Shown: one piece after another, positions 2,421 through 52,191 of the stretch
Layout of the letters: each line of letters starts with the position of its first letter
Numbering within the stretch: the first letter of the stretch is position 1
Notes under the pieces: generated by a model
What the model saw: only the letters and a program-made list of their open reading frames with translations
Told to the model about the DNA's origin: nothing
The model's database searches: none
Source: Ferruginibacter sp.
GTDB taxonomy: Bacteria; Bacteroidota; Bacteroidia; Chitinophagales; Chitinophagaceae
Assembly: GCA_031408295.1 (NCBI GenBank)
Contig: JANNVW010000103.1
Coordinates: forward strand, 9,270-73,269
DNA length: 64,000 nucleotides
Direction of reading: 5' to 3'
Position numbers and translations under genes: made by a program

Positions 2421-2684
2421 ATGGAGACGATAGAATTAAAAACACAATTGAAAAAGCAAATAGTAGAATTTTTAAACTTACTATCTGTAAAGCCTGAAGA
2501 TATTAAAGATGATGAACCCCTTTTTGGAGAAGGGCTAGGATTAGATTCTATAGACTCTATTGAGCTTATTGTGTTGCTAAACAGAGAATACGGCATTGTT
2601 ATAGAAGACCCAAAAGAAGGTCGCAAGGTATTAGTAGATATAAATACCATGGCTGATTATATTGAAAAAAACAGAAAAAAATAA
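2421..2684 (+). CDS. acyl carrier protein
   Basis: 87 aa, acidic, with phosphopantetheine-attachment motif LGLDSIDSIELI. Confidence 0.85.
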   Translation: METIELKTQLKKQIVEFLNLLSVKPEDIKDDEPLFGEGLGLDSIDSIELIVLLNREYGIVIEDPKEGRKVLVDINTMADYIEKNRKK

Positions 2685-3882
2685 TACCACTTTATTGAGC
2701 CGGATTGTTGTTACAGGAATGGGAATAATAAGTGCCATCGGAAATTCGGTAGCAGAAAATCATATGTCCCTTAAAGGAGAAAAAAATGGTATAACAGATT
2801 TAGAAATGTTTCCCTCCAATTTTGCTGGTAAAATGCCTGTAGGCGAAATTAAAATTAGCAACGAAGATTTAATAAAGAAACTTGATGTAGATGTGTCAGG
2901 TATTACACGCACTACTTTATTGGCAATTCATGCCATAGAAGAAGCCCTCCAAGATAGTAAACTTACCAATACGCAAATTGCAGATTTTGACACAGCCCTT
3001 ATTACTGCAACTACCGTTGGTGGAATGTGCTTGACAGATGAAATGTATAACGATTCTCAAAAAGACTCCATAGGCTCAGCATACCTTTCTTCTTACGATT
3101 ATGGTGCTACCAATATGGTTTTGCAAAAGCGTTACAATTTAAAAGGGCAAATAAATACCATCAACACAGCATGTTCATCTTCTGCCAATGCAATAATGTA
3201 TGGCGCAAGACTCATACAATCTGGTAGGGCTCGTAGGGCTATTGTTGGCGGTGTAGACAGTTTGGCAAAGTTTACCATTAATGGATTTAATGCGTTACAT
3301 ATTTTATCGCCAAATATTTGTATGCCATTTGATGAAGGTAGAACTGGTTTAAACTTAGGCGAGGGAGCTGCATACCTAGTTTTAGAAAGAGAAGAAGATG
3401 TGGTTGGTAAAAAAAAATATGCATCGCTAAGTGGTTATTGCAATGCAAACGATGCCTACCATGCTTCCTCATTATCAGACGAGGCTGATGGGCCGTATTA
3501 TGCTATGAAAGGTGCACTTGATGTGGCAAAACTAAACCCATCCCAAATAGATTTTATAAATGCACATGGTACTGCCACAGAAAATAATGATAAAATAGAA
3601 AGCGTAGCAATGCTTCGGCTGTTTGATAAACCACCTGCATTTGCTTCTACCAAAGGCAATGTTGGGCATACCCTTGGTGCGGCTGGCTCTATCGAAGCCG
3701 TTTATTGTATTTTAAATTTAGTGCATCAAGAACTTTATGCAGGGCTTCATTTTAAGAACCCCATTACAGCATTAGGCTTAATGCCTATTACGGCTTACAA
3801 AAAAACAGCACTCACACATATCATGTCCAACTCATTTGGTTTTGGCGGCAATTGTTCATCACTCCTTTTTTCCAAAGTTTGA
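2662..3882 (+). CDS. beta-ketoacyl-ACP synthase (FabF/KS-alpha like)
   Basis: Active-site Cys in NTACSSSANAI, His motifs HGTAT and GHTLGAAG, C-terminal SNSFGFGGNCSS. Confidence 0.9.
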   Translation: MKKTEKNNTTLLSRIVVTGMGIISAIGNSVAENHMSLKGEKNGITDLEMFPSNFAGKMPVGEIKISNEDLIKKLDVDVSGITRTTLLAIHAIEEALQDSKLTNTQIADFDTALITATTVGGMCLTDEMYNDSQKDSIGSAYLSSYDYGATNMVLQKRYNLKGQINTINTACSSSANAIMYGARLIQSGRARRAIVGGVDSLAKFTINGFNALHILSPNICMPFDEGRTGLNLGEGAAYLVLEREEDVVGKKKYASLSGYCNANDAYHASSLSDEADGPYYAMKGALDVAKLNPSQIDFINAHGTATENNDKIESVAMLRLFDKPPAFASTKGNVGHTLGAAGSIEAVYCILNLVHQELYAGLHFKNPITALGLMPITAYKKTALTHIMSNSFGFGGNCSSLLFSKV

Positions 3883-3886
3883 TATT

Positions 3887-4924
3887 ATGTTTTATATTCA
3901 TCAATCATCATCTATATGGACGCAAGAAAATTTTGCAGCTACAGATTTTAATGAACCTGTAGATAGAAAAATATTTGCATTGGAACCTGCTTACCAAGAT
4001 ATACCACCTGGTATATTAAGAAGAATGGGTAAAGCGGTAAGAATGGGCGTGGGTGCAGCTATGCCATTGCTACAAAATAATGTGAAACCTAACGGTATCA
4101 TTATAGGCACTACCAATAGTGGCAAAGAAGATTGTGTAAAATTTTTAAACCAAATAGTAGATTATAATGAGGGAATGCTCACCCCAATAAATTTTGTACA
4201 AAGCACACCCAATGCTACTGCCGCACAAATTGGATTGCTTACAAAAAACCATGGTTACAATATTACGCATACACAGTTGGGGCTTGCCTTTGAGTTTGCG
4301 GCAATAGATGCGGATATGCTTTTGCTAGAAAACCCATTGCACAATTATTTACTTGGTGCTGTAGATGATATTTCTACATTCAATTATAATTTTGAAGATA
4401 AGGCTGGAGCTTATAAAAAAGAAGATATTTCTACTAAAAATTTATATGAATCCAATACACCTGGTTGCATTGCAGGTGAGGCTGCTACCATGTTTTTAGT
4501 AAATAAAAATGCACAAAATGCTATTGCAAAACTTGTAGCTATTGATACTTTGCATAACGAAGATGAGCAAATACTGAAAGAAAAGCTACAATATTTTATT
4601 GAAAACAATTTACCCAATGGCGAAAAGATAGATTTGCTTTTGTCTGGCGAAAATGGCGACAATCGTTTAAACAAATATTACACAACTTGCGAAGCGGTAT
4701 TAAATGAAACAACATCTATTGTTCGCTATAAACATCTTACCGGTGAGTACCCAACAGCAACAGCCATGGGGCTTGTACTTGCTTGTACTATTTTACAAAC
4801 ACAACAATTGCCAACTACAATAATAAAAAGAAAGGGCAATAATGTAGCTTATAGAAATATTTTAATCTACAATAATTATAAAGCTGTTCAACACAGTTTT
4901 ATGCTGGTTTCAATTCCGAATTAG
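3887..4924 (+). CDS. KS-related protein lacking the catalytic Cys (chain-length-factor-like, Ketoacyl-synt_2-type)
   Basis: ATG at 3887 lies 4 nt after the KS stop, and the track ORF start at 3836 overlaps the KS. Paralogous to 12069-13127 (shared RRMGKAVRMGVGAA / RRMSRIIKMGVAAA and TPxxFxQSTxN). Confidence 0.7.
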   Translation: MFYIHQSSSIWTQENFAATDFNEPVDRKIFALEPAYQDIPPGILRRMGKAVRMGVGAAMPLLQNNVKPNGIIIGTTNSGKEDCVKFLNQIVDYNEGMLTPINFVQSTPNATAAQIGLLTKNHGYNITHTQLGLAFEFAAIDADMLLLENPLHNYLLGAVDDISTFNYNFEDKAGAYKKEDISTKNLYESNTPGCIAGEAATMFLVNKNAQNAIAKLVAIDTLHNEDEQILKEKLQYFIENNLPNGEKIDLLLSGENGDNRLNKYYTTCEAVLNETTSIVRYKHLTGEYPTATAMGLVLACTILQTQQLPTTIIKRKGNNVAYRNILIYNNYKAVQHSFMLVSIPN

Positions 4925-19835: not shown

Positions 19836-20099
19836 TTATGCATTATTAAATTGATGCGCCGTAATATATTCGGCCATCGTTCTTACTGTTTTAAAAACTT
19901 TCGGGCCTTCATCTGCATTAGAAAGTTTTATTTTATACTGTTGTTGTAAGAGCACAATCAACTCTAGTGCATCTATAGAATCTAGACCAAGGCCTTCCAT
20001 AAAAAGAGGCTCATCATCTGCAATATCTTCAGGTTTTAAATCCTGTAAATTTAGTTGGGCAATAATCTGCTCTTTCAGATTTGCTATTAACTTATCCAT
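19836..20099 (-). CDS. acyl carrier protein
   Basis: 87 aa with LGLDSIDALELI motif. Paralog of 2421-2684. Confidence 0.85.
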   Translation of the reverse strand: MDKLIANLKEQIIAQLNLQDLKPEDIADDEPLFMEGLGLDSIDALELIVLLQQQYKIKLSNADEGPKVFKTVRTMAEYITAHQFNNA

Positions 20100-20724
20100 T
20101 AGCTTTCAGGTATATTTTATTTATGTTTTCTGGGGTAAATGGAATTCCATCGCCCATTTTTTCTTTTTCTATTAAAAACAATACGGTCTTATATTCATCT
20201 TGCACATATTCTACCCAGCCACAAATACAAGCCTGCAAGATATTATTATTAATTAAGTTACTCACATATTGGCCTATAAATTCTGCATCAAATTCTTCAC
20301 ATATAAAAAAAGCGTTCTCTCCTTTAAATTGATGCCTTATACATATCTCACCAATTACTATATTTGGTAATGTATAAACGAAAAGTGCTGGGCTAGGGAT
20401 GTTTTTTGTTGTTTCTATATATTTTATATCAGTATCTAAACTTGCATTTGCATTAGAAAATACTACAGCTACATCTTCGGGTTTGTATTTGTTTACTATA
20501 AAACTGTCTTTTAATAATAATTCAGTAGCTAGCCAACCCAGTTTACTTAGGTTATCCATTTTGTAAAACTTTGGATATTTTATTCCAAAATTTTGATAAA
20601 CAGAAACTAAAAAATCTGAAACTGCTACATCTTTGTTCTCAAAAATGAGCCCGTCATTCTTATAAACCTCACGATTGCTAATAATACAACTAGCCGAAAT
20701 GTAGTTTTCTATACTTGCCATCAT
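20092..20724 (-). CDS. conserved hypothetical protein of the pigment cluster
   Basis: 210 aa ORF overlapping both neighbours by 4-8 nt (operon). No motif recognised. Confidence 0.4.
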   Translation of the reverse strand: MMASIENYISASCIISNREVYKNDGLIFENKDVAVSDFLVSVYQNFGIKYPKFYKMDNLSKLGWLATELLLKDSFIVNKYKPEDVAVVFSNANASLDTDIKYIETTKNIPSPALFVYTLPNIVIGEICIRHQFKGENAFFICEEFDAEFIGQYVSNLINNNILQACICGWVEYVQDEYKTVLFLIEKEKMGDGIPFTPENINKIYLKANG

Positions 20725-21977
20725 ACTATATCTTCTGCTAATATTTTTCCAATTTCAATAAGCCTTGCTAGTTTCTTTACCTCTTTTGCACTATCCTTCA
20801 CAAATGGATTGTTAGTGTCCCAAACATAACCTGCCAATACAGAACAAATCATATTTTTTTTCACGAGGTCAGGGGTTTCGGCAAAGAAAATAGTATCCAA
20901 AGTGCCATCATACCAAGTTTCTACATAGGTTCTAAATGTATCTATACCCTTCATCATAGGCTCGGTGTATTGGCTTTCCCAATCTACGTCTTCCCCATTT
21001 AATTTTTTAATTACTAAATTGGCAGCCATTTGGCTCGAAACTGTTGCCAGTGTTACCCCCGAAGAAAAAACAGGGTCCAAAAATTCAGTAACATTGCCAG
21101 TCAGTACATACCCATCTCCATAAAATTTATCGCTTGTAGCCGACCAAGACTCTTTTGTCATTGGCTCAAAAACAAATTCAACATCTTTCATTCTTTCACA
21201 TAAATAAGGCTCTGATTCCAACAAAGCCCTAAGCTGAACTTCAGTATTTCCCAACTCATCAAATGGTTTAAAAAATGAAGGGTCTCCTACAAAACCCACA
21301 GAGGTTATACCATTTGAAAATGGAATAACCCAAATCCATATTCCTTTTTGATGCACAATAATGGTAATGCGATCTGGCTCATCATCCATGGTACGCTTTG
21401 TATCTACCACATGGGCAAAAATAGTTTTTCGGCTTGCAAGGTTACTAGGTTTGTCTAAATTAAACATACTTGGTATTACCCTGCCATATCCACTTCCATC
21501 TACAATAAATCTAGCTTTTATTTGTGTTGTGTTACCTTCTTTATCTGTAATGGTAGTCACTGAGTTTGACCCATTAAATTCAATACCTGTTACTGTTGTT
21601 TCATAACTAACTGGCACGCCCATTTGTTCTACCGCATCTGCAAGCGTTTTATCAAATTCTGCCCTAGGTACTTGCCATGTCCAATCATAACCAGAGGTAA
21701 ACTTATCTGCAAAAAAATAATCGCACACTGCTCCATTTTTTACAAACTTAGCACCATATTTTTTTTGAAATCCTTTAGCTTTTACGGCATTTAAAAATCC
21801 TGCTTCTTCTAACGCTTCCATACAGCGGGGTAGCAAGCTTTCACCAATTACAAAGCGAGGGAATTTTAATTTTTCTACAATTTTTACTTTAAACCCAGCT
21901 TTATTTATAATAGAAGCAGCTACTGAACCTGCGGGCCCGGCACCAATTACGAGTACATCTACGTTTTCGGTTTTCAT
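20721..21977 (-). CDS. flavin-dependent halogenase-like FAD oxidoreductase
   Basis: GxGxxG (VIGAGPAGS) plus WIWVIP (the WxWxIP signature) at 21321-21338. Confidence 0.7.
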   Translation of the reverse strand: MKTENVDVLVIGAGPAGSVAASIINKAGFKVKIVEKLKFPRFVIGESLLPRCMEALEEAGFLNAVKAKGFQKKYGAKFVKNGAVCDYFFADKFTSGYDWTWQVPRAEFDKTLADAVEQMGVPVSYETTVTGIEFNGSNSVTTITDKEGNTTQIKARFIVDGSGYGRVIPSMFNLDKPSNLASRKTIFAHVVDTKRTMDDEPDRITIIVHQKGIWIWVIPFSNGITSVGFVGDPSFFKPFDELGNTEVQLRALLESEPYLCERMKDVEFVFEPMTKESWSATSDKFYGDGYVLTGNVTEFLDPVFSSGVTLATVSSQMAANLVIKKLNGEDVDWESQYTEPMMKGIDTFRTYVETWYDGTLDTIFFAETPDLVKKNMICSVLAGYVWDTNNPFVKDSAKEVKKLARLIEIGKILAEDIV

Positions 21978-23053
21978 TGCTTGTTTATTATTTTAGTACA
22001 TTTAATTAATGTTTGGCTTAAGCCTATATTATCTATTTGTTCTACTATTTTAAAATTAGCCTCTTCAATACACTTAATAAAAGTTTCTGCGCTATACATT
22101 TGACTATTTCCATTGGCTACAGCAGTAAAATATAACGACGTTTGTTGTAAACAAAATGCGGCTGTTTCAAATTTTTGTTTATCCCAAAATGGCTCCATTA
22201 TAATTATTTGCCCATTTTCATCAAGCGCATCGTAGCACCTATTTAGTATAGACACAATTTCAGCTTCAGAAAAACAATCCAAAAATTGGCTCATCCAAAT
22301 AGCATCAAACCCTGTTGGAAGTTTTACGGTTTCATCCAAAATGTTAGCCTCCAAAAACGAAATCCTATCATTTAACCCAAGCGCAGTAATTTTTTCCTTT
22401 GCTACATTTAACTGCCCAGGCAAATCAATCATAGTAACGTGTATATCTGCCGAATAATTTACAGAAGCCGTAGCCCATTTACCTGTATTACCGCCTATTT
22501 CTAATATTTTCTTAATGCCATTTGAGTATACTTTTGGTAATACCCGGTGAAAAGCATCATCCGAAAAATAATGGTCAAAATCAAACCAACTTTTTTGAAC
22601 ATGCTTAGGTAAAGACGAAAGACCCTCATACACGGTTTCCCATTCTCCAAATTCCTTTAACCCAACTGGTTTGCCCGTTTTTATACTTTCCTCAAGATAA
22701 AAAAGCCCCTTGTAATTTACATCATGCACAAAATCCATATTTACCCTTGTTAAAGGGTCGTGCAAAATATAATGACCCACTTTACCAATTGTATACCTCC
22801 CGTCATTCACAAGTACTAATCCAAGTCCCAATCCTGACTCTAATAATACCCTTACTCCATATAAAGATAGCTTTACTTTTTCAGATATTTCACTTATGAT
22901 TAATCCCGTAGTTCCACTTTGTTCAATTTCGTCAAGTATGCCGGTGTTTCTAAGCACCCTTGCTGCTTGAAAAATTGCTGGACCAAAAGCAATCCATTGC
23001 GCTATATCAATCGCTTCAAAAGCAGTGTTCTTTTCTGTAGAGAAAAAATTCAT
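21974..23053 (-). CDS. class I SAM-dependent O-methyltransferase
   Basis: Motif I ILEIGGNTGKW. N-terminal dimerisation/winged-helix-like region. 359 aa. Confidence 0.75.
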   Translation of the reverse strand: MNFFSTEKNTAFEAIDIAQWIAFGPAIFQAARVLRNTGILDEIEQSGTTGLIISEISEKVKLSLYGVRVLLESGLGLGLVLVNDGRYTIGKVGHYILHDPLTRVNMDFVHDVNYKGLFYLEESIKTGKPVGLKEFGEWETVYEGLSSLPKHVQKSWFDFDHYFSDDAFHRVLPKVYSNGIKKILEIGGNTGKWATASVNYSADIHVTMIDLPGQLNVAKEKITALGLNDRISFLEANILDETVKLPTGFDAIWMSQFLDCFSEAEIVSILNRCYDALDENGQIIIMEPFWDKQKFETAAFCLQQTSLYFTAVANGNSQMYSAETFIKCIEEANFKIVEQIDNIGLSQTLIKCTKIINKQ

Positions 23054-23086
23054 TATTATGTTATTTAATAGTTCTAGTTAATTATT

Positions 23087-24226
23087 TTATTGTTTACCAA
23101 AGATAAGTGCTGCATTGCAGCCTCCAAAACCAGAAGCTGTTTTTAAACAATTTCTTAGGCTGGTTTTTTGCAAGCTACTACAAATGTTTATGGGTTCTGT
23201 TACACCTATATTTTCAAACCCCTTGGTGGGTATTATTATATTTTCTTTTAAAGAATGAATAGCTATAATAGCTTCTATAACACCCGCTGCACCAAGTGTA
23301 TGGCCATAATAACCTTTCAAACTATTGGTAGGTACATGTTGCATATTGGCTAGTGTAATGGCTTTAGCCTCCATTTCATCGTTGTAAATAGTAGCAGTGC
23401 CATGTGCCGAAATAAAATCAACATCATTTGGAGAAAATAGTTTTGCTTCCTTCATGGCTTTAGTGATAGCAATATTAAGCTCCTCACCAGTACGAGATGG
23501 GCCAGAAATATGGTTGGCATCGTTACTAACAGAGCCTCCCATTATTTTTATATCTTGAGAAGTTTTTTTATTAGCCGAAAGAATAATAGTAGCAGCACCT
23601 TCGCCTAAATTTATACCATTTCTATTGGCATCAAAAGGTTTGCAAGGGTTTTCGCTAATGGCATTAAAAGATTGAAAGCCTGACAATACAAATTTTGAAA
23701 TGGCATCTGCCCCAGCCACAACTACATTATCATACTGTCCAGCTTGTATTAAACGCATACCAGTTAATATAGCCAGTAAGCCAGATATACAGGCATTGGA
23801 AACCACAATGGGTTTGCTTACAAATTTAAAATGTGAGGCTATCAAATTTGCAGAGCTACTTAAAGAAATTTTTTGTTGTAAACTGGGACTATACGTTTCC
23901 GTTTCTAACAAACCAATATTGCCTTTGGTAGAAGAAACGACAAGCCCTGTTTTTTTATCCGAAACATTTATACTACTATTTTCTAACGCTTTACTTATGG
24001 ACGCAATTAGTATTTTTTCAAATTTTGTAAAATTATTATTCAAGCTATTCAATAAAAAATGTTCATCTCCATTAAACAATGCACTATAAAAAGGCACTGC
24101 GGACATGCTTGCATTGCTATGCATTTTTATACCTGATACATTATTTTGTACCTGCAAAAAATTTTCTGCACTGTTACTACCTATTGGCGATAAAATATTG
24201 TCTGAAATAATAAAAACATCTTTCAT
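23087..24226 (-). CDS. beta-ketoacyl-ACP synthase (third KS)
   Basis: Active-site Cys in SNACISGLLAI, plus HGTAT, GHTLGAAG and SGFGGCNA. Confidence 0.85.
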   Translation of the reverse strand: MKDVFIISDNILSPIGSNSAENFLQVQNNVSGIKMHSNASMSAVPFYSALFNGDEHFLLNSLNNNFTKFEKILIASISKALENSSINVSDKKTGLVVSSTKGNIGLLETETYSPSLQQKISLSSSANLIASHFKFVSKPIVVSNACISGLLAILTGMRLIQAGQYDNVVVAGADAISKFVLSGFQSFNAISENPCKPFDANRNGINLGEGAATIILSANKKTSQDIKIMGGSVSNDANHISGPSRTGEELNIAITKAMKEAKLFSPNDVDFISAHGTATIYNDEMEAKAITLANMQHVPTNSLKGYYGHTLGAAGVIEAIIAIHSLKENIIIPTKGFENIGVTEPINICSSLQKTSLRNCLKTASGFGGCNAALIFGKQ

Positions 24227-24232
24227 ATACTG

Positions 24233-24658
24233 CTAATTCAACCCAATGCTTTTTTTCCAATCTTCAAAAAAAGGAGGGTTGGAGAGTTGTAAAATAGATT
24301 CCTCTTTATCTAAAAAAACTTGTACTGAGTAACCCGTAGCCACAAGCTCATTATTCAATGCATTGTATAAACGATACTCAAATCTTAGTTTTGCTGCTAC
24401 ACTAGGCACATAGGTTGTTTCCACAATAATTTTATCGCCATAGCGTACCGATTTTTTAAAATCGCAATGCACACTCACCACAGGTATTACAAACCCTTGT
24501 TTATATACGTCAAGGTAGCTCAAGCCATTCATATTGCCATAAGCTTCTCTTCCATCTTCAAAATATCTAATGTAATTGCCATGCCAAACAATACCCAATG
24601 GGTCGGCTTCATTAAAACGAATCAACAGCTCTATCTTACAACTCAGTTTTTTTTCCAT
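24233..24658 (-). CDS. acyl-CoA/acyl-ACP thioesterase (4HBT/YbgC-like hot-dog)
   Basis: ATG at 24658 gives MEKKLSCKIELLIRFNEADPLGIVWHGNYIRYFEDGREA. The upstream 41 codons of the track ORF look non-coding. Confidence 0.75.
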   Translation of the reverse strand: MEKKLSCKIELLIRFNEADPLGIVWHGNYIRYFEDGREAYGNMNGLSYLDVYKQGFVIPVVSVHCDFKKSVRYGDKIIVETTYVPSVAAKLRFEYRLYNALNNELVATGYSVQVFLDKEESILQLSNPPFFEDWKKSIGLN

Positions 24659-24889
24659 AAGGACTAAAATGATAATATTATCCGCTGTTGAGGTTAATGG
24701 AAATTCCAATATTGCTATTTGTAAAAAACAACAACATTGAAGAGCGATTAATATCATGCAAATTAATCGTTTCAGCACCAAAATTCAAATTATTATTTAA
24801 AACCAAAGCTTAAGAAGTTGCGTAGTTTGTAAGAAATTAACTAAAATGTTAAAGTTTATTGAAAATGATTCATCTATAAATTTACCAGT

Positions 24890-27090: not shown

Positions 27091-27183
27091 TATGTCAAAG
27101 CTATAAAAAAGATTAGTTACAGTATTAAAAACTAAAATTATGCGTTAAGAAAGTTTTCCTTAACAACTTGTCTAGAAAAATTG

Positions 27184-27191
27184 TACATTTG
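27184..27191 (+). promoter_or_regulatory. candidate -7 box (TAnnTTTG)
   Basis: TACATTTG lies 19 nt upstream of the antitoxin ATG. It is the same octamer as upstream of the XRE gene at 18169. Confidence 0.3.
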
Positions 27192-27209
27192 GTTATTAAT
27201 ATTTCGAGT

Positions 27210-27461
27210 ATGAAAACATTAACCGTTGGCGAATTTAAAGCGCAATTTAGTAGTGTAATAGAAATGATAAAAGCCGGTGAAGAAGTGGAAGTAACTTTTG
27301 GAAAACAAAAGGAAGTTATTGGTGTGTTTAAACCAAAGGAAAAGAAGAAGGATACAAGGGTGAAAATCGGATTGCTTAATAATATGAAAGGCTATAGAAT
27401 GGCAAAAGATTTTACCGAAACAACTTTTGAAGATTTCCCCATGAAAGAATTATATGAATAA
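27210..27461 (+). CDS. type II antitoxin (Phd/YefM-like)
   Basis: MKTLTVGEFKAQFSSVIEMIKAGEEVEVTFGK. 83 aa. Overlaps the downstream PIN gene by 8 nt. Confidence 0.65.
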   Translation: MKTLTVGEFKAQFSSVIEMIKAGEEVEVTFGKQKEVIGVFKPKEKKKDTRVKIGLLNNMKGYRMAKDFTETTFEDFPMKELYE

Positions 27462-27855
27462 ATTTTTAATGGATACCCATATTTTATTGTGGCTTTATTT
27501 TAATTCAGATAAATTATCAAAAAATGTCAATTCACTTTTTAAACAAAGTGGGAATACCTTTTATGTGAGTACTGTTTCTATTTGGGAGATTAGTATAAAA
27601 TTTCATTTAGGAAAACTTGACTTAGGTAATTTGAATCCATTCGATTTAAGAAACTTGATTCTAGAAAATAATATTAAAATTATCAATCTTGATTCTGATA
27701 CTGCCGCTACTTTGTTTCAATTAAATGCCACTTACCACAAAGACCCTTTCGACAGAATGCTTATTTGGCAAGCTATACAAAACAATTATACTTTTATTAC
27801 TGATGATAAAAATATAAAATTGTACAAAAGTGAAGGCTTAAAAACGGTTTGGTAA
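27454..27855 (+). CDS. vapC: type II toxin, PIN domain (VapC family)
   Basis: LMDTHILLWL N-terminal acidic motif, SIWEISIK, and DPFDRMLIWQA...ITDD C-terminal acidic residues. Confidence 0.8.
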   Translation: MNKFLMDTHILLWLYFNSDKLSKNVNSLFKQSGNTFYVSTVSIWEISIKFHLGKLDLGNLNPFDLRNLILENNIKIINLDSDTAATLFQLNATYHKDPFDRMLIWQAIQNNYTFITDDKNIKLYKSEGLKTVW

Positions 27856-27876
27856 TTTAGTATAATATAGATTCCT

Positions 27877-28941
27877 TTAATTACTATCACCTACTAAATC
27901 CTCGTTATCATTCAAAGAAAAGTAATGTCTTTTTTCATTCCTTGCATAACGTTCCTTCCCACTATAATTTCCTAATATTTGTTTTTCACCAAATGCCTTC
28001 CAAAAGATTGTGAGATTATTTTCTTTTAAGAATTTTATAAAAGGTTTCTTTTTTACTAATAAGCATGACAAGCTTTTATTATTTACAGAAGGGTCAAAGC
28101 AAATAAGTTCATTCTCTTGGTTTACAAATTCACCTTCATGTTTCCCTTGTTTCATATTAAGCCCTTTAAACAAAAAGTAACTTGGCTTTAAAAACCTTAG
28201 TGCCTCTTCTTTAGAACAATCAAATTCTTCTTCCCATAAATAATTACAATAGGGCAAATAAGCTTTACTTATTAGTTTATCGTCCTTTCTATCAGTAATC
28301 TCAACCTCTATTTCTCCTCTGTAGTAATTTTTTTGAAAAAAAGCATGTGCCTTTGACCAATAATACTCCCTGCTAAATACCTGATAACGCTGCCCCGCTT
28401 CGGGAAATGATAGAATCCAAAAAGTTTTTGCTTTAACTAATTTATCAATTTCATTTTTACTTTCTTTAGGGATTATGTAACTTTCTATATGATACCAAAG
28501 TCTTTTATATGAAGTGCCAAATGAATTTTCAGTTATTTCTTTAGGTTCTCTCCATTGTGGAGAGCCATCTAGTAGAAGCCACTCATTTTCATCATTTTCT
28601 TTAAAAGCAATAATTTCTGAAATACTTGGGAAATCAATTTTTTTATTCATCCAAACTTCATTTTTAAAATCCCAATTCGAGTAGTTTGTTTTAAACCACC
28701 AATTATTACAATTTTTTTCATCCTGCTTTGTAGATGATATTAAAATCGTTGGGTCAATATCTCTTACATAGGGATACCATGTACCTTTGTAAATTGCTTT
28801 CTCTTTAAACCCATATTCTTGAATTAACGGAAAATTGTCTGCTACTCGTGCCAAGGATTCATAAAATAAAATCCATTGATACTTTTTTCCAATTCTTTCT
28901 TTATGTCCTTCACTTCTTCCTGAATATTTATTTGAATCAAA
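27877..28941 (-). CDS. aromatic-rich domain of unknown function, in frame with and directly continuing the upstream STAND NTPase ORF after one TAG
   Basis: The 29 sense codons at 28855-28941 link the TAG (28942-28944) to the track ORF, which starts only at a TTG (28854). No ATG occurs in the first ~95 codons. Confidence 0.55.
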   Translation of the reverse strand, partial: FDSNKYSGRSEGHKERIGKKYQWILFYESLARVADNFPLIQEYGFKEKAIYKGTWYPYVRDIDPTILISSTKQDEKNCNNWWFKTNYSNWDFKNEVWMNKKIDFPSISEIIAFKENDENEWLLLDGSPQWREPKEITENSFGTSYKRLWYHIESYIIPKESKNEIDKLVKAKTFWILSFPEAGQRYQVFSREYYWSKAHAFFQKNYYRGEIEVEITDRKDDKLISKAYLPYCNYLWEEEFDCSKEEALRFLKPSYFLFKGLNMKQGKHEGEFVNQENELICFDPSVNNKSLSCLLVKKKPFIKFLKENNLTIFWKAFGEKQILGNYSGKERYARNEKRHYFSLNDNEDLVGDSN

Positions 28942-31900
28942 CTATCCATGTGTTTCCGATTTATATCCTAATTTAAAGATTTCTTCTACGGCCCAATTAC
29001 TCCATTTGTTAGCATCAACTTTAAAATGCGAAAGCCCTCTTTCAAATGTATATCTTCCAAAATCTCCATATCTCGAAGTTCCTCTTCCATATTCTGTGAC
29101 CATTGAATCTAATATTGCATTTTGTCCTCTATCGGAATCTTTAAATTTTTTTGATTTATAATCAATTTTATATTTTTTATCAATTTCTGTATTTGTAGGA
29201 AATTTATTTGGCAAATCACTTTTATATGGCGGTTGTATTTTGGCTAAATCAAATTTTAATTTTATTCCTGAGTGAATTGTGAAATCTATAACTCCTTTTG
29301 CATAATCCCTCAAAAGAATATGCGGATATACTTTCTCTTTATTAAAAATTTCCTCAAATATGTATTCACTTAATTCTTTCAGAGCACTTAGTTTTTCAGA
29401 GCGTACAGCACTTCCATAGGCTACAGCAAATAATCTCTCATAAACATAAGGGTCATTTACATTTTCAAATTTTTGTAATAATGGTTTTAGCAATTGAATT
29501 CTATTTTCTAGGAGATTAACTAAACCTTTTGTAGCTGCATCTCTTAAATACCTATTACAGCTAGTAAGAAACCAAGCTAAGGTCATTGAAGTGAGTAATA
29601 TCACATCATCATCTACATAACTTTTATCTTCTTCCTGCCATGACCAATCAATGAGTCTTTTTACTATTGAGTTGTAGTCATATTTATCATTTATATAAAT
29701 TGTCCACCAAGCATCTCTACTAGCTAGGGTATATCTCAATAATTGTTTATGTAAAAAATCTGCATTAAAAAAATGATTGGGTCTAACAGATACTGAGATT
29801 AACATTTCAAGAAATTTCTCATTTGTTCCATTATATTTTATTGCTACTAAATTTACATATTCAAGAGTTTTCTCTGTAAAAGATTCACTTTTCCTCCAAA
29901 ATATACTTTCAATAAATGCTTCACATATAGAAAAACACTTTTGAACTCTTGGTACTAATTCGTACAATTCTTTTTTAATTCTTTCAGGTAATTGAATGGA
30001 TAAGGCTTCAAGTATTCCTTGATTCATAGAGCAATCATTTTCAGACTTTGTGATTTCATACAAATAACCGGATTTGAACGCTAAGAGAGGATTTTTTTTA
30101 TTGACGATATATTTGTCTATTATAGCAGAAGCAAATAGGTGGTCTTCAAATCTTTCATAAGCTAAATAAATACCTTTTTCATGAGTTGTATATGTTCTAT
30201 CCCAATATAAATCTTCACTAAAAATCCCTTCCGAAATTAACATGTCAAAATAATTACTCCCTTTAGTACAATTTTTTCTAAATATTTCATGTGCAACTTC
30301 ATATGCATATGCATAGGGGATATATCTTTTTTTATTCTCAACCTTCCACTCTAAAAGTGAATCAATTACTCTTTGTACAAGATTTATAGAAGGTGAAAAA
30401 TCCAGATTTTTGGGATTAGAAAGTTTTTCATTAACACTATCAATAAAAAAGTTAAAAGATTGCTTTATACCCCAAAAACCATCAGTAAGTTTTTTTAATC
30501 CTCTATTGACTAATCCTTCACATAATAGTTTTAAAAATAGAGGGTTTTGAAATTCGGGTTGAAACAACGGCATATTAGGTTGCTCAATACCATAGGCTAG
30601 AAAAAAATGCTTAGCAGCTTCATATTCAAATCCTCCAAAACCATTGTGATAAACACGTAACATATCATCATCAGTAATGATTTCTTGGGGCGCTATTAAT
30701 TTTATGTATGAAGTTCTTATTGAAACGACTAAACCTAACCATTTAAACTTTTTTATCAAATCAATAAAGTTCTTTAAATAATCTGACCAAAAGTTTTTAC
30801 CATTTCCTTCATTTAAAGCGTCTATAAAAATAATGATGCGTTTACCTGTAGATTCTGCTTTCGAATTTAATGCGCCAAGGAAAACATATTCGTTTGATGG
30901 GAAACGAAGTTGGTTACTTAAAATCTGAGTCCACGGATTATCATCGTTTGTAAAATGTTGCCCAAGGAGAAAAAGACTCAGATAACCATTTTTATAACGA
31001 TTGTTAACAATGTCAGCAAGTAAATGTGACTTTCCCATTCCTGCTTTACTTTCAATTATTAAATATGGTGAGTTTACAAGAGTACAAGTTTGAGAATTTA
31101 GGAATTCACTTAATTCATTTAATGACCGACTTAAAAGTCGTAAATAATGTATTTCATTATTATTAGGCTTTATTGAATATTTATATTTGTCAGGGTCTTT
31201 CTGAACCTCCAATTGTTGAGATGAATACAGTTCTTGATTATAAGTATCACAACTTTCAATAGTAGAAGTAATTATATTTTGAATAAGAATATAGTCAATA
31301 TTTTTAATATCACTTAAATCTAATCCTTTAAACCAAATTATAATTTTTTCAAAATCAGTAATAATTTTTTTTACTACCTTTTTTTTACTTTTACTGTTAA
31401 GATGTGAATTAATATTTCCAAATTTTTCAAAAATGTTTTTAAAATAAACGTCTATTTGGCTTTTTAGATTTTCATCTCTAGCAAATCCATCAAACATTTT
31501 TGCGATAGGCAATTCAAAATTTAATTTAGGAGTATATCTTTTATTGAGAAGAATTTGTGTAGCATTTTTAATATTATCTTCAAACCAATCATCAGTAAAT
31601 TCTGTTTTGTTAAACCAAAAATAAATCATTCCCTCATGTTCTCTTTTTGAAAGCATTTCTACTAATTCGAAATACCCCCAATAAATGAACTTTACGTTCA
31701 TGCCTTTTTCCTGTGATAACTTTTCCCATTCTTTTACTTTTATATCCCATTTATCAAGCATAGATTTTTTACCGACTAATTTTGCATCAGGCATGTTAAT
31801 TGGAATTGCAACATAATATATAACTAATTTAGGATGTTTATCTAAGGCTGTTTTAACCGATTCATCTAAATCTCTCCATTGGGTATTGCCTAAAGAATTT

Positions 31901-32106
31901 AAAAAATATTTAGCTTGCCATCCCCATTCTGTATCATCATTCATTTGCAATATACATTCTACTCCAGCATCGGGTTTACCCTTTCTTATAAAACGTTTTG
32001 AATTTATGGGGTTTATTTTCCTTGCTAGTTGGCATACCAACTCCTCAAAACCCTCGTCTTGTTTACCATTAATTGTCCGAATATTTAAGAAATTAATATC
32101 TGTCAC
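28942..32106 (-). CDS. Mrr-like PD-(D/E)xK nuclease + NACHT/STAND-type P-loop NTPase + helical repeat region (candidate antiphage Avs/bNACHT-like protein)
   Basis: GTG start. N-terminal GFEELVCQLA...GKPDAGVECIL...WGWQAKYF (31909-31971). Walker A SKAGMGKS (31027-31050). Walker B IIIFIDALNEG. More than 600 aa of helical sequence follow. Confidence 0.65.
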   Translation of the reverse strand: MTDINFLNIRTINGKQDEGFEELVCQLARKINPINSKRFIRKGKPDAGVECILQMNDDTEWGWQAKYFLNSLGNTQWRDLDESVKTALDKHPKLVIYYVAIPINMPDAKLVGKKSMLDKWDIKVKEWEKLSQEKGMNVKFIYWGYFELVEMLSKREHEGMIYFWFNKTEFTDDWFEDNIKNATQILLNKRYTPKLNFELPIAKMFDGFARDENLKSQIDVYFKNIFEKFGNINSHLNSKSKKKVVKKIITDFEKIIIWFKGLDLSDIKNIDYILIQNIITSTIESCDTYNQELYSSQQLEVQKDPDKYKYSIKPNNNEIHYLRLLSRSLNELSEFLNSQTCTLVNSPYLIIESKAGMGKSHLLADIVNNRYKNGYLSLFLLGQHFTNDDNPWTQILSNQLRFPSNEYVFLGALNSKAESTGKRIIIFIDALNEGNGKNFWSDYLKNFIDLIKKFKWLGLVVSIRTSYIKLIAPQEIITDDDMLRVYHNGFGGFEYEAAKHFFLAYGIEQPNMPLFQPEFQNPLFLKLLCEGLVNRGLKKLTDGFWGIKQSFNFFIDSVNEKLSNPKNLDFSPSINLVQRVIDSLLEWKVENKKRYIPYAYAYEVAHEIFRKNCTKGSNYFDMLISEGIFSEDLYWDRTYTTHEKGIYLAYERFEDHLFASAIIDKYIVNKKNPLLAFKSGYLYEITKSENDCSMNQGILEALSIQLPERIKKELYELVPRVQKCFSICEAFIESIFWRKSESFTEKTLEYVNLVAIKYNGTNEKFLEMLISVSVRPNHFFNADFLHKQLLRYTLASRDAWWTIYINDKYDYNSIVKRLIDWSWQEEDKSYVDDDVILLTSMTLAWFLTSCNRYLRDAATKGLVNLLENRIQLLKPLLQKFENVNDPYVYERLFAVAYGSAVRSEKLSALKELSEYIFEEIFNKEKVYPHILLRDYAKGVIDFTIHSGIKLKFDLAKIQPPYKSDLPNKFPTNTEIDKKYKIDYKSKKFKDSDRGQNAILDSMVTEYGRGTSRYGDFGRYTFERGLSHFKVDANKWSNWAVEEIFKLGYKSETHG

Positions 32107-32348
32107 TTGACTAAATTTTATTTGGTATAAATTTTATCTTTCTCTGCTAAGGTAATTTATTTGAAACATATCAACTAATAATTTTAGTATTTATAGTTTA
32201 GGATCTCTAGGGTTAAGTTCACAAGAATTAAAATTTGTTGCATAAAATATTTTTTACCGAACAATAAACTTGGCAAAAAACAATCTATTTTTTTACTGAT
32301 AAAATTTGCGGTAAGTAAAACTTCATAATATTTTAAGCTTCTTTTCTG

Positions 32349-32410
32349 CATTGGGGTTTCGCAGTAAACTTTCATTCAATTTAAAGATTCTAATTGCGAA
32401 AACCCCAATG
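32349..32410. repeat. GGGGTTTCGC ... GCGAAAACCCC palindromic hairpin element (copy F)
   Basis: Arms cattggggtttcgca (32349-32363) and tgcgaaaaccccaatg (32395-32410), with a 31-nt AT-rich loop. Confidence 0.85.
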
Positions 32411-32485
32411 GGACATCCCCCTAAAATCCATTTGATAAAAATTATTTTCCCCAACATTTTTTATCCTTTATATTCGTTTATCAAA

Positions 32486-34462
32486 ATGTATAAAATGAAA
32501 CGAATTTGTATGCTCTTCGCATTAATCACATCTTTATTTAGTAGCAAAGCACAAAGCGATAAACAATACCCTGCTTATACAGGCAAAGACTTGGGCTTAA
32601 CATTTGTAAAAAATAATGCTAGCTTTCGTATATGGGCACCAACCGCAACGCAGGTAAAACTACGATTGTACAGCCAACCCTTGGGTGGCGAAGCCATACA
32701 AACCATAGATATGAAAAAATCTGTGCAAGGCACATGGGCAGCAGCTTTGGTAGGTACGCACTTAGGAGATTATTATACATTTAGTGTAGAAAATAATGGC
32801 GCTTGGTTAGATGAAACAACAGACCCTTATGCAAAAGCAGTTGGTACAAATGGCCAGCGAGCCATGATTGTAGATATGCAAAAAACAAACCCTGCGGGAT
32901 GGGCTACTGATAAAGCACCTGCATTAAAAAGTAAAACAGATGCCATAGTGTATGAGTTGCACGTACGTGATGCAAGCATAGCCGCCAACTCAGGCATTGC
33001 ACAAAAAGGAAAATTTATTGGGCTTACAGAAACAGGTACAAAAAACAATGATGGACTTTCCACAGGGTTAGACCATTTGGTAGAGCTTGGTGTAACGCAT
33101 GTGCAAATATTGCCATTGTACGATTACAACTCTGTAGATGAATCAGAGCCTAACAAAGCACAATACAATTGGGGCTACGACCCACAAAATTACAATACAC
33201 CTGATGGTTCGTATAGTACCAATGCTGCTGATGGAGCAGTGCGTATAAAAGAATTTAAGCAGTTGGTAAAAACATTTCATGCAAAAGGATTGAGTGTAAT
33301 AATGGATGTAGTGTATAACCATACAGGAACTACAAACGAATCTAATTTTAACCAATTAGTGCCGGGGTATTATTATCGTAAAACAGCAGATGGAAAATTT
33401 AGCGATGCTTCAGGTTGTGGAAACGAAACAGCAAGTGAAAAAGCCATGATGCGAAAATTTATTTTGGAGTCTGTTTTGTATTGGGTAAAAGAATACCATA
33501 TTGATGGATTTCGTTTTGACTTAATGGGCATACACGATATTGAAACGATGAATTTAATCTCAAAAGAGTTACACAAAATAAAACCAAGTATTATTTTGTT
33601 TGGAGAAGGGTGGACTTCAGGTGGTTCAACTTTAGCAGAAGATAAGAGGGCTGTAAAAAAGAATACCATGCTGCTAGATAAAGTAGGTGTGTTTAGCGAT
33701 GATATTCGGGATGGTATAAAAGGCAGTGTGTTTGAGCATAAAGATGGCGGCTTTGCTAGTGGCAAGCCAGGTATGGAAGAGAGTATAAAATTTGGTATTG
33801 TAGCATCTACACAACATCCACAAATAAATTACAGCAAAGTAAATTATAGTAAAGCACCTTATGCAAAAGAGCCTTACCAAACGGTTACTTATGTGGAGTG
33901 CCACGATAACCATGTGTTGTGGGATAGATTATTAAACAGCAACCCAAATAACAGCGAGGCTGAAAAAATTGAAATGCACAAACTTGCATTGTCTATTGTG
34001 CTCACTTCGCAAGGCATAAGTTTTTTACACGCAGGCACAGAGTTTTTGCGTACAAAAAAAGGTGTAGAAAATTCTTACAAATCTCCTGATGATATTAATG
34101 AAATGGATTGGAGTTTAAAAACAAAAAACAAAGTTGTTTTTGATTATGTGCAAGGGCTTGTGCGTATGCGTAAGGCGCATCCTGCATTTCGCATGGCAAC
34201 AACTGCTAGCATACAATCAAACCTTCGTTTTATAGATAACCAACCATTGAATGTTATAGGTTATCAGTTAAACGGGGCGGCAGTAAATGATAGTTGGAAA
34301 AAGATACAAGTTTGGTTTAATGGAAATAACACTGCACAAAAAATAAAACTAGAAGGTAGCGGTTGGAAGACAGCGGTGATGAATAATAAGTTTGAAGAAA
34401 TGGTGGTGAGTGGAGAGATTAATTTGGGGGCGAATAGTTGTGTGGTGGTATTTAAAAAATAA
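32486..34462 (+). CDS. pulA: type I pullulanase (GH13)
   Basis: YNWGYDP, DVVYNH, GFRFDLMG, GEGW and YVECHDN. Signal peptide MKRICMLFALITSLFSSKAQ. The start is 32486 or 32495; the track start at 32351 runs through the hairpin repeat. Confidence 0.85.
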   Translation: MYKMKRICMLFALITSLFSSKAQSDKQYPAYTGKDLGLTFVKNNASFRIWAPTATQVKLRLYSQPLGGEAIQTIDMKKSVQGTWAAALVGTHLGDYYTFSVENNGAWLDETTDPYAKAVGTNGQRAMIVDMQKTNPAGWATDKAPALKSKTDAIVYELHVRDASIAANSGIAQKGKFIGLTETGTKNNDGLSTGLDHLVELGVTHVQILPLYDYNSVDESEPNKAQYNWGYDPQNYNTPDGSYSTNAADGAVRIKEFKQLVKTFHAKGLSVIMDVVYNHTGTTNESNFNQLVPGYYYRKTADGKFSDASGCGNETASEKAMMRKFILESVLYWVKEYHIDGFRFDLMGIHDIETMNLISKELHKIKPSIILFGEGWTSGGSTLAEDKRAVKKNTMLLDKVGVFSDDIRDGIKGSVFEHKDGGFASGKPGMEESIKFGIVASTQHPQINYSKVNYSKAPYAKEPYQTVTYVECHDNHVLWDRLLNSNPNNSEAEKIEMHKLALSIVLTSQGISFLHAGTEFLRTKKGVENSYKSPDDINEMDWSLKTKNKVVFDYVQGLVRMRKAHPAFRMATTASIQSNLRFIDNQPLNVIGYQLNGAAVNDSWKKIQVWFNGNNTAQKIKLEGSGWKTAVMNNKFEEMVVSGEINLGANSCVVVFKK

Positions 34463-51282: not shown

Positions 51283-51453
51283 CAGTTGGCAGTTGGCAAA
51301 GGGCAGTTGGCAAATAGCAGTTGGCAAAGGGCAAGATGCAGTTGGCAAAGGGCAGTGGTGGGCAATAGGGAGTTGGCAATTGAGAGTTGTCATTTAAAAG
51401 GAGGCAATAACAATTTACCAATGCAACAATTAAACAATTTACCAATGCAACAA
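51283..51453. repeat. intergenic tandem repeats: CAGTTGGCAAAGGG-type 14-mer (7+7) x~7, then a 24-nt repeat x2
   Basis: cagttggcaaaggg/cagttggcaaatag units at 51283-51390. caatttaccaatgcaacaa at 51411 and 51435. Confidence 0.85.
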
Positions 51454-52191
51454 CCAAACAATACAACGCTCTGCTTCGACTTTGGAAACACCCGCCGGAA
51501 AGCCGCTATTTTTATAAATGATAATATGAGCGAAACCATTTATTTGGAAAATGATGATGTGGAAACCATGGAAAAAATTATAGAAAAATATAATCCACAA
51601 AAAACCATTCTTTCTTCTGTAATAAAACATAACGAAGCAATAGAAGATGTACTAGCAGCAAAAACATTGTTTCATAAATTATCTGTAGCCACAAAAATAA
51701 ATTTTACAACACCCGTGGGCAAGCCCGAAACTATTGGTGCAGATCGTTTAGCATTGGTGAGTGCAGCAGTACACTTTTACCCAAATAAAAATAACCTGAT
51801 TATTGGTTTGGGCAGTTGTATTACCTACAACTTTGTAAACCAGCAGCACGAGTTTTTAGGTGGCGGCATTTCGCCAGGCATGGATATGCGCTTTAAAGCC
51901 ATGCACGATTATACTGCTTTATTGCCTTTGGAGAAAGAAACATGGAATTTTCCATTAATTGGCTATGACACTAGAACAAATCTACAAAGTGGTGTTTTAA
52001 ACGGTATGGCCGCTGAAATAGAGGGTATTGTGGAACGATATGGCAATAAATTTGACAACTTTAACGTGGTTTTAACCGGCGGAAATTCATCGTATTTTGC
52101 CGGGCAACTTAAAAGCCGGATATTTGCCGACCGTAATTTTTTATTTAAAGGACTGTATGCACTTAGCGAACTTAACAACTGCCACAATTAA
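51445..52191 (+). CDS. coaX: type III pantothenate kinase
   Basis: CFDFGNTRRK (DxGNT), GADR and LTGG. The ATG at 51445 gives about 249 aa. The track ORF start at 51286 reads through the repeat array. Confidence 0.8.
   Translation: MQQPNNTTLCFDFGNTRRKAAIFINDNMSETIYLENDDVETMEKIIEKYNPQKTILSSVIKHNEAIEDVLAAKTLFHKLSVATKINFTTPVGKPETIGADRLALVSAAVHFYPNKNNLIIGLGSCITYNFVNQQHEFLGGGISPGMDMRFKAMHDYTALLPLEKETWNFPLIGYDTRTNLQSGVLNGMAAEIEGIVERYGNKFDNFNVVLTGGNSSYFAGQLKSRIFADRNFLFKGLYALSELNNCHN

Follow-up and report, generated by a model that had tools for sequence, protein, structure and literature searches.

A recent nonsense mutation has very probably inactivated an Avs2 defence gene in Ferruginibacter sp.

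Reading frame of the Avs2 locus

In this study, a 64,000-nucleotide (nt) stretch of DNA from Ferruginibacter sp. (contig JANNVW010000103.1), here called the window, was analysed around a gene that is assigned to the AVAST type 2 defence family (Avs2) and is interrupted by a single in-frame TAG. All coordinates are window positions, and the Avs2 frame lies on the minus strand. This frame (32106..27877) comprises 1409 codons: it opens with a GTG at 32106, runs through 1054 sense codons to the TAG, and reaches a TAA after a further 354 sense codons. The TAG (28944..28942, codon 1055) is its sole internal stop. The remaining two minus-strand frames of the same stretch contain 124 and 209 stops, and about 128 per 1409 codons are expected from the local base composition. 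One stop where about 128 are expected therefore points to one genuine coding frame with one lesion rather than to chance. A preliminary description, made from the letters of the window, had proposed that one TAG splits an open reading frame (ORF) of about 1409 codons, and this was borne out.

The upstream piece (28945..32106, minus strand), delimited by its ORF and by profile matches, has 1054 codons and a GTG start, and is predicted to encode an Mrr-like nuclease effector, a helical extension, a STAND ATPase and a TPR region. It is closed by the TAG (28942..28944, minus strand), which is premature according to both the translation of the frame and the alignment of homologues. The severed 3' part (27880..28941, minus strand) consists of 354 sense codons and, by its matches to the Avs2 profile and to a characterised Avs2 protein, carries an intact C-terminal sensor domain without a usable start. 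The TAA at 27877..27879 (minus strand) is the natural stop of the gene, since the homologue alignments finish within a few residues of it.

The TAG is followed by 29 sense codons (28941..28855), which run into the listed ORF 27877..28854 (325 amino acids, aa) at a TTG (28854..28852). The hand translation in the preliminary description, …KLGYKSETHG-TAG-FDSNKYSGRSEGHKERIGKKYQWILFYES-L-ARVADNF…, proved exact over this region, including the 29 sense codons. Translation of the frame shows that the TTG (28852..28854, minus strand) is the first in-frame ATG, GTG or TTG 3' of the TAG, 30 codons on; the 325-aa ORF nominally begins with this codon, which is probably unused. The first in-frame ATG is codon 1153 (28650..28648), which lies 98 codons past the TAG and 68 past the TTG. 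Hence, the earlier statement that ATG is missing for about 95 codons is right if counted from the TAG.

Family assignment and domain content

Judged by its profile, structure-based and motif matches, the frame 32106..27877 is one Avs2 gene with a predicted Mrr-like nuclease, STAND ATPase, TPR region and C-terminal sensor. A conceptual fusion across the TAG scored 1330.1 bits against NCBIfam NF041813 (Avs2, equivalog) and passes the curated cut-off of 1000. Taken separately, the pieces stay below this cut-off, with 966 bits for the upstream piece (profile positions 6-832) and 354 bits for the downstream piece (969-1313 of 1317). Six PADLOC Avs2 models were matched colinearly by both pieces. In PDLC02162, which has 1379 positions, the upstream piece covers 2-1024 and the downstream piece 1033-1366, and PDLC02164 was matched by the upstream piece with 1152 bits over positions 2-1004. 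The N-terminus of the upstream piece lines up with the starts of orthologues.

The cryo-electron microscopy structure of EcAvs2, the AVAST type 2 protein of E. coli, is available as PDB 9o4e (Evans et al., 2026; PMC13601566). Residues 169-979 of the upstream piece align with EcAvs2 residues 165-965, which cover the ATPase and TPR (E=2.6e-174), and the piece after the TAG aligns with residues 1130-1472 (E=1.6e-76). Both proteins thus have the STAND ATPase, the TPR and the C-terminal sensor in common. They differ in the effector, which is unusual and uncharacterised in EcAvs2, whereas the window gene is of the common Mrr-like nuclease type. They also differ in continuity: EcAvs2 is one intact polypeptide, and the window gene is cut about 7 residues before the equivalent of R1130. 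The EcAvs2 sensor match begins at this residue, and everything 3' of the TAG is sensor.

In EcAvs2, the beta-rich C-terminal sensor and the TPR form the pocket that binds the ATPase domain of the terminase, and they hold a bridging ATP (PMC13601566). The contact residues are T1128, R1130, R1132, W1266, E1362, E1364, E1444 and E1462 (PMC13601566). The window sequence keeps R1132, E1362/E1364 (in LWEEEFD), E1444 and E1462, and has Ser in place of R1130 and Phe in place of W1266. A further mark of the sensor is the motif ERIGKKYQW (28873..28899, minus strand), which is invariant in all 20 sequences of one alignment and lies between the TAG and the TTG candidate restart. Between the TAG and this motif there is no in-frame ATG, GTG or TTG, and a product initiated at TTG 28854 would miss the motif together with the residues equivalent to R1130/R1132.

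At the other end of the frame, three (near-)invariant motifs of the alignments, FEELVCQLA (32049..32023), PDAGVE (31974..31957) and WQAKY (31920..31906), make up the core of a putative N-terminal PD-(D/E)xK (Mrr-like) nuclease (31906..32049, minus strand). A Pfam search of the protein gave no nuclease match, and the PD-(D/E)xK assignment rests on the aligned motifs. Mrr-like nucleases acting on double-stranded DNA are the effector of most Avs2 homologues (PMC13601566). In the ATPase, the GK[ST] core (AGMGKSH) and Walker B (IIIFIDALNE) are both present. In the Walker A loop (SKAGMGKS, 31027..31050, minus strand) the alignment shows that the first glycine of GxxxxGKS is replaced by Ser (G353S).

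Homologues across the interruption

The homologue set consisted of 120 listed matches from a search of 5.8 billion clusters. It includes P0001, a database protein that is the exact 1054-aa product of the Avs2 locus. The remaining 119 of 119 among the matches listed are single ORFs of 1385-1456 aa, continuous across the TAG position, and apart from P0001 no truncated relative of about 1054 aa was found among the 120. In the alignment of the 120 sequences, the TAG falls on a variable column (E 41, K 25, D 22, N 8, Q 6) in which no relative has a stop. The column is flanked by conserved HG and FD and aligns one-to-one without an indel. Glu occupies it in three of the four closest relatives among the matches listed. 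As TAG can arise from GAG, AAG or CAG by one substitution and the column holds an ordinary sense residue in relatives, a single base change suffices as an explanation.

At the DNA level, 80 Avs2 loci were taken from representative genomes, 70 of which were scorable. In all 70, the frame is open for 789 codons or more (mostly 1024-1214) 5' of the ERIGKKYQ motif, compared with 15 at the window locus. The test named in the preliminary description was whether orthologues have one fused ORF, and this is the case in the 119 other listed homologues as well as in the 70 scorable loci.

The nearest homologue among the matches listed is P0002 (1416 aa, 61% identity), which shares clade-specific sequence features and the domain order with the window protein and has Glu at the TAG column. 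Unlike the window gene it is intact. It is also placed differently, as cargo at the edge of a region resembling a conjugative element, whereas the window copy lies in a low-GC (guanine plus cytosine) patch between chromosomal genes. At its locus (L084 157..10378; JGI 3300025703 contig Ga0208357_1000214), P0002 is bordered on one side by genes for a relaxase and a type IV coupling protein, and on the other by a tyrosine integrase and a DUF1016/YhcG nuclease-like gene. This neighbourhood suggests that the Avs2 clade moves horizontally, as cargo of integrative conjugative elements. With a degenerate pattern for KSETHGxFDSNK, no closer DNA allele was matched in metagenome contigs. Close-relative patterns from the C-terminal piece had no match in genome contigs, and no plasmid records matching the Avs2 locus were found.

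Age of the lesion and further substitutions

Of the 68 columns with a conservation of at least 90% in the part downstream of the TAG, the window sequence retains 63, which is within the range of intact clade members (62-65). The identity of this part relative to that of the N-terminal part gives a ratio of 0.90, compared with 0.87-0.94 in intact proteins. About 7% of single substitutions in the 354 downstream codons would create a stop. As no second stop is present, neutral divergence since the event is at most about 0.04 substitutions per site (95%), with the 50% point near 0.009. The ratio of non-synonymous to synonymous substitution rates (dN/dS) was not used because, with amino-acid identity at 61%, synonymous sites have reached saturation; conserved columns and the bound from stop accumulation were used instead. 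With 354 downstream codons free of a second lesion and of excess divergence, the event would be recent.

The gene as a whole departs from highly conserved columns at 22 positions, the highest number among the 120 sequences (tied with one other; median 9). It alone among the 120 also has private changes in three columns that are otherwise invariant, namely G353S, P541T and R937K. G353S (31048..31050, minus strand) affects the first Walker A glycine, which is Gly in 119 of the 119 other listed homologues. P541T (about 30484..30486, minus strand) and R937K (about 29296..29298, minus strand) likewise fall in columns that are invariant in the 119 others. In the nuclease domain, the near-invariant positions E31I (32014..32016, minus strand) and D104N (31795..31797, minus strand) are changed as well. 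By alignment, this excess of private breaks is consistent with a gene whose constraint has been partly relaxed. The private substitutions, in particular that of the first Walker A glycine, suggest that the gene may bear additional damage. They may represent a second inactivating hit, or one that suppresses toxicity.

TAG usage and assembly support

Of the 59 long window frames, ten terminate in TAG, in each case at a normal gene end beyond which a further gene begins with an ATG of its own. For this check, every stop-to-stop frame of 150 codons or more was listed and each abutting same-frame pair was inspected. Three other TAG junctions with a long same-phase frame downstream are gene boundaries with an ATG 2-5 codons on. 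They separate a thioesterase from a ketoacyl synthase, an ORF from a likely glycosyltransferase, and hydantoinase A from hydantoinase B. Considered with the three TAA junctions, the other three TAG junctions are normal boundaries, mostly with an ATG 1-9 codons on; one has a repeat-rich stretch before the gene proper. Reassignment of TAG was considered and rejected, as the junctions elsewhere are normal gene ends and Pfam shows distinct complete families on either side. ARAGORN detected no tRNA genes in the 64-kb window, and hence no suppressor with a CUA anticodon. No other split gene was seen among the window genes examined, which speaks for the quality of the assembly.

The Logan assembly of run SRR20217191 contains a 5743-bp contig that is 100% identical to window positions 27431..33173, including the TAG. 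It carries the same gene calls of 1054 aa and 325 aa.

Discussion

The locus is a disrupted member of the Avs2 family, very probably a pseudogene, in which all domains are encoded, but not on one uninterrupted polypeptide. The family assignment, the colinear interruption by one codon, the missing restart codon and the intact downstream part are directly established. We consider it very probable that a recent single-base nonsense mutation has inactivated a known defence gene, Avs2. This explanation was among the options named in the preliminary description, and it gains support from the fused orthologues and the colinear Avs2 matches of both pieces. The simplest event would be a single-base substitution at codon 1055, which turned GAG (Glu), AAG (Lys) or CAG (Gln) into TAG. 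Translation would then stop after the TPR region and give a 1054-aa product without the whole beta-rich C-terminal sensor. By analogy with characterised Avs2, this sensor would make up one half of the binding pocket for the large terminase of phages (or for Ksap-type proteins), and such binding would trigger tetramerisation and nuclease activation. The truncated protein would be predicted to be unable to sense phage, which would leave the defence gene inactive.

A laboratory counterpart of this truncation has been described for KpAvs2. KpAvs2 delta1066-1352, from which the C-terminal recognition domain is deleted, provides no defence and binds neither terminase nor Ksap1 (Béchon et al., 2024; PMC11564622). 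The same deletion was the comparison strain in a terminase-toxicity assay (PMC11564622). KpAvs2 resembles the window protein in its Mrr-family nuclease, its STAND NTPase and its long C-terminal recognition domain. The deletion resembles the natural truncation, with an approximate equivalence of the end points, as the two sequences were not aligned. A difference is that KpAvs2 works with the accessory genes Avap1 and Avap2, and none were identified beside the window gene. From these homologue experiments we infer that loss of phage sensing would be the best-supported mechanism.

The interruption could also be an artefact: if the TAG were a sequencing or assembly error, the organism would have an ordinary intact 1409-aa Avs2. 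All but one codon does look like an intact gene, with a conserved downstream part and no second lesion, and a single base change is enough for the alignment. Nevertheless, we regard an artefact as improbable, since the separately produced Logan assembly of SRR20217191 is identical over its 5743 bp including the TAG, the site (CATGGATAGTTTG) is neither repetitive nor a homopolymer, and a substitution is unlike the indels typical of long-read errors. Moreover, no other examined window gene looks broken, and the three private changes at invariant sites fit real decay. The option of a sequencing error, also named in the preliminary description, is thus made unlikely by the identical Logan assembly.

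If the mutation is real, the interruption might be functional, so that readthrough of the TAG gives some full-length Avs2 or reinitiation makes the sensor separately for a two-piece system. The 354 codons without decay 3' of the TAG are in line with this, and sensor-only ORFs with their own ATG in public data (P0158 on L003, P0254 on L087) hint at a free-standing domain. However, no relative has a stop at the TAG column, TAG is the ordinary terminator of other window genes, and the window holds no tRNA and so no suppressor. Stop codons with a U immediately 3', such as the TAG-T of the Avs2 stop, are a strong termination context in bacteria, which would count against readthrough. The first possible restart is the TTG 30 codons on, past both ERIGKKYQW and the R1130/R1132 equivalents. 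Other short C-terminal ORFs are themselves broken genes, as in P0130, which has an in-frame stop at a different place. We therefore give a functional interruption very little credence. Two further options of the preliminary description found no support: a split two-protein system lacks a usable start codon and meets a sense codon at the TAG column in every relative, and stop-codon readthrough is opposed by the same column and by the termination of other window genes at TAG. It would be more speculative still to propose that the TAG is no dead end, and that a sensor-less nuclease-STAND-TPR protein and a separate or read-through sensor form a two-piece or conditionally completed Avs2; to this we attach the slightest probability of all. 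Metagenomic sensor-only ORFs would fit a sensor domain acting in trans. In such a two-piece system, low-level suppression of the TAG would tune the output of full-length sensor, perhaps limiting autoimmunity.

Alternatively, the mutation might be real and the sensor-less 1054-aa protein might retain a selected role, perhaps that of a nuclease/STAND module under different regulation or with partial autoactivity. Removal of the TPR and the C-terminal domain is reported to make an Avs2-trypsin protein autoactive in vitro (preprint, bioRxiv 10.64898/2026.08.25.746987), which shows that sensor loss need not simply kill activity. The intact nuclease core motifs and Walker B of the window protein are in agreement with such a role. 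On the other hand, deletion of the C-terminus abolished defence in KpAvs2, which is of the Mrr nuclease type and architecturally closer (PMC11564622), and the window protein retains the TPR, unlike the autoactive Avs2-trypsin construct. The replaced invariant Walker A glycine points to a loss of ATPase-driven activation, and among the 120 listed homologues P0001 has no truncated relatives of similar length. A selected role of the short protein is accordingly very unlikely.

Several points weigh against a recent inactivating mutation and have to be set beside the evidence in its favour. The absence of a second downstream lesion is also expected of a domain that is still expressed. The branch leading to the window protein is long and private (nearest relative 61%), which weakens the argument from private substitutions; with the nearest homologue at 61%, there is also no sister allele to give the ancestral codon or the date of the change. 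The search for suppressor tRNAs covered 64 kb of the genome. The support for the base itself is at assembly level, and the Logan and NCBI assemblies may come from one run, so that there is a small chance of a systematic read error. Finally, the loss of function is drawn from experiments on homologues and not on the Avs2 protein of the window.

For a recent nonsense mutation in Avs2, the practical consequence lies mainly in annotation. The 1054-aa and 325-aa ORFs should be annotated as one Avs2 pseudogene and not as two hypothetical proteins, and the genome should not be tallied as having a working Avs2 in surveys of defence repertoires. The Avs2 family, its structure and the effect of sensor loss are already published, and pseudogenised defence genes are common. 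The locus would further illustrate how rapidly costly abortive-infection genes are gained and lost, and it has little significance beyond annotation. The truncation near the start of the sensor would, together with a TAG-to-GAG revertant, provide a ready loss-of-sensor control for an Mrr-nuclease Avs2 of the Bacteroidota type. The co-occurring G353S could reveal the order in which such genes are disarmed.

Sensor-only ORFs in public metagenomes

ORFs of 414-422 aa that consist of the Avs2 C-terminal sensor only form a recurrent class in public metagenomes. P0130 (L002 106..1353) belongs to a second Avs2 gene that is interrupted by an in-frame stop, at a position other than that of the window TAG, and the frame of P0205 (L088 120..1367) is open to the contig edge. 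P0158 (L003 867..2135) has its own ATG and lies on a short contig on which no partner or Avs2 remnant was seen upstream and the neighbouring gene is on the opposite strand. P0254 (L087 71..1315), also with its own ATG, is on a short contig with no visible partner gene or upstream Avs2 remnant. These ORFs were considered as evidence of natural splitting and rejected as too thin; they reveal no conserved split at the TAG site. They attest to sporadic breakage and perhaps also to orphan sensor domains.

Genomic surroundings

The GC content is 27-30% in the patch that holds the Avs2 gene (about 26-32.3 kb) and 32-39% in the flanking chromosomal genes. Avs2 is flanked by a convergent PIN-toxin pair on one side and by a type I pullulanase gene on the other. 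The pair consists of a 97-aa ORF (27168..27461, plus strand) and a 133-aa PIN-domain ORF (27454..27855, plus strand), which overlap by 8 nt and together have the layout of a VapBC-like toxin-antitoxin pair. This pair is convergent to, and directly downstream of, the Avs2 gene within the same low-GC patch. The presence of both in the patch suggests a small acquired defence islet. The Logan contig ends at 27431, inside the upstream ORF of the PIN pair, and at 33173, inside the pullulanase gene.

Genes of a flexirubin-type aryl-polyene pigment cluster, which comes within a few kb of Avs2, were observed at 2662..4924 and 20092..24781, including ketoacyl synthases and a thioesterase. The cluster also contains an FlxJ-family methyltransferase (21974..23077) and a FAD-dependent halogenase-like gene (20721..21992). 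These pigment genes and a GC content of 33% suggest that the host is probably a member of the Bacteroidota. Imperfect short tandem repeats are present at 51283..51462; those at 51283..51389 have CAGTTGG and GGCAGTTGGCAAAG units, and those at 51409..51462 a 24-nt unit. They lie just 5' of a type III pantothenate kinase domain and inflate the listed ORF 51286..52191.

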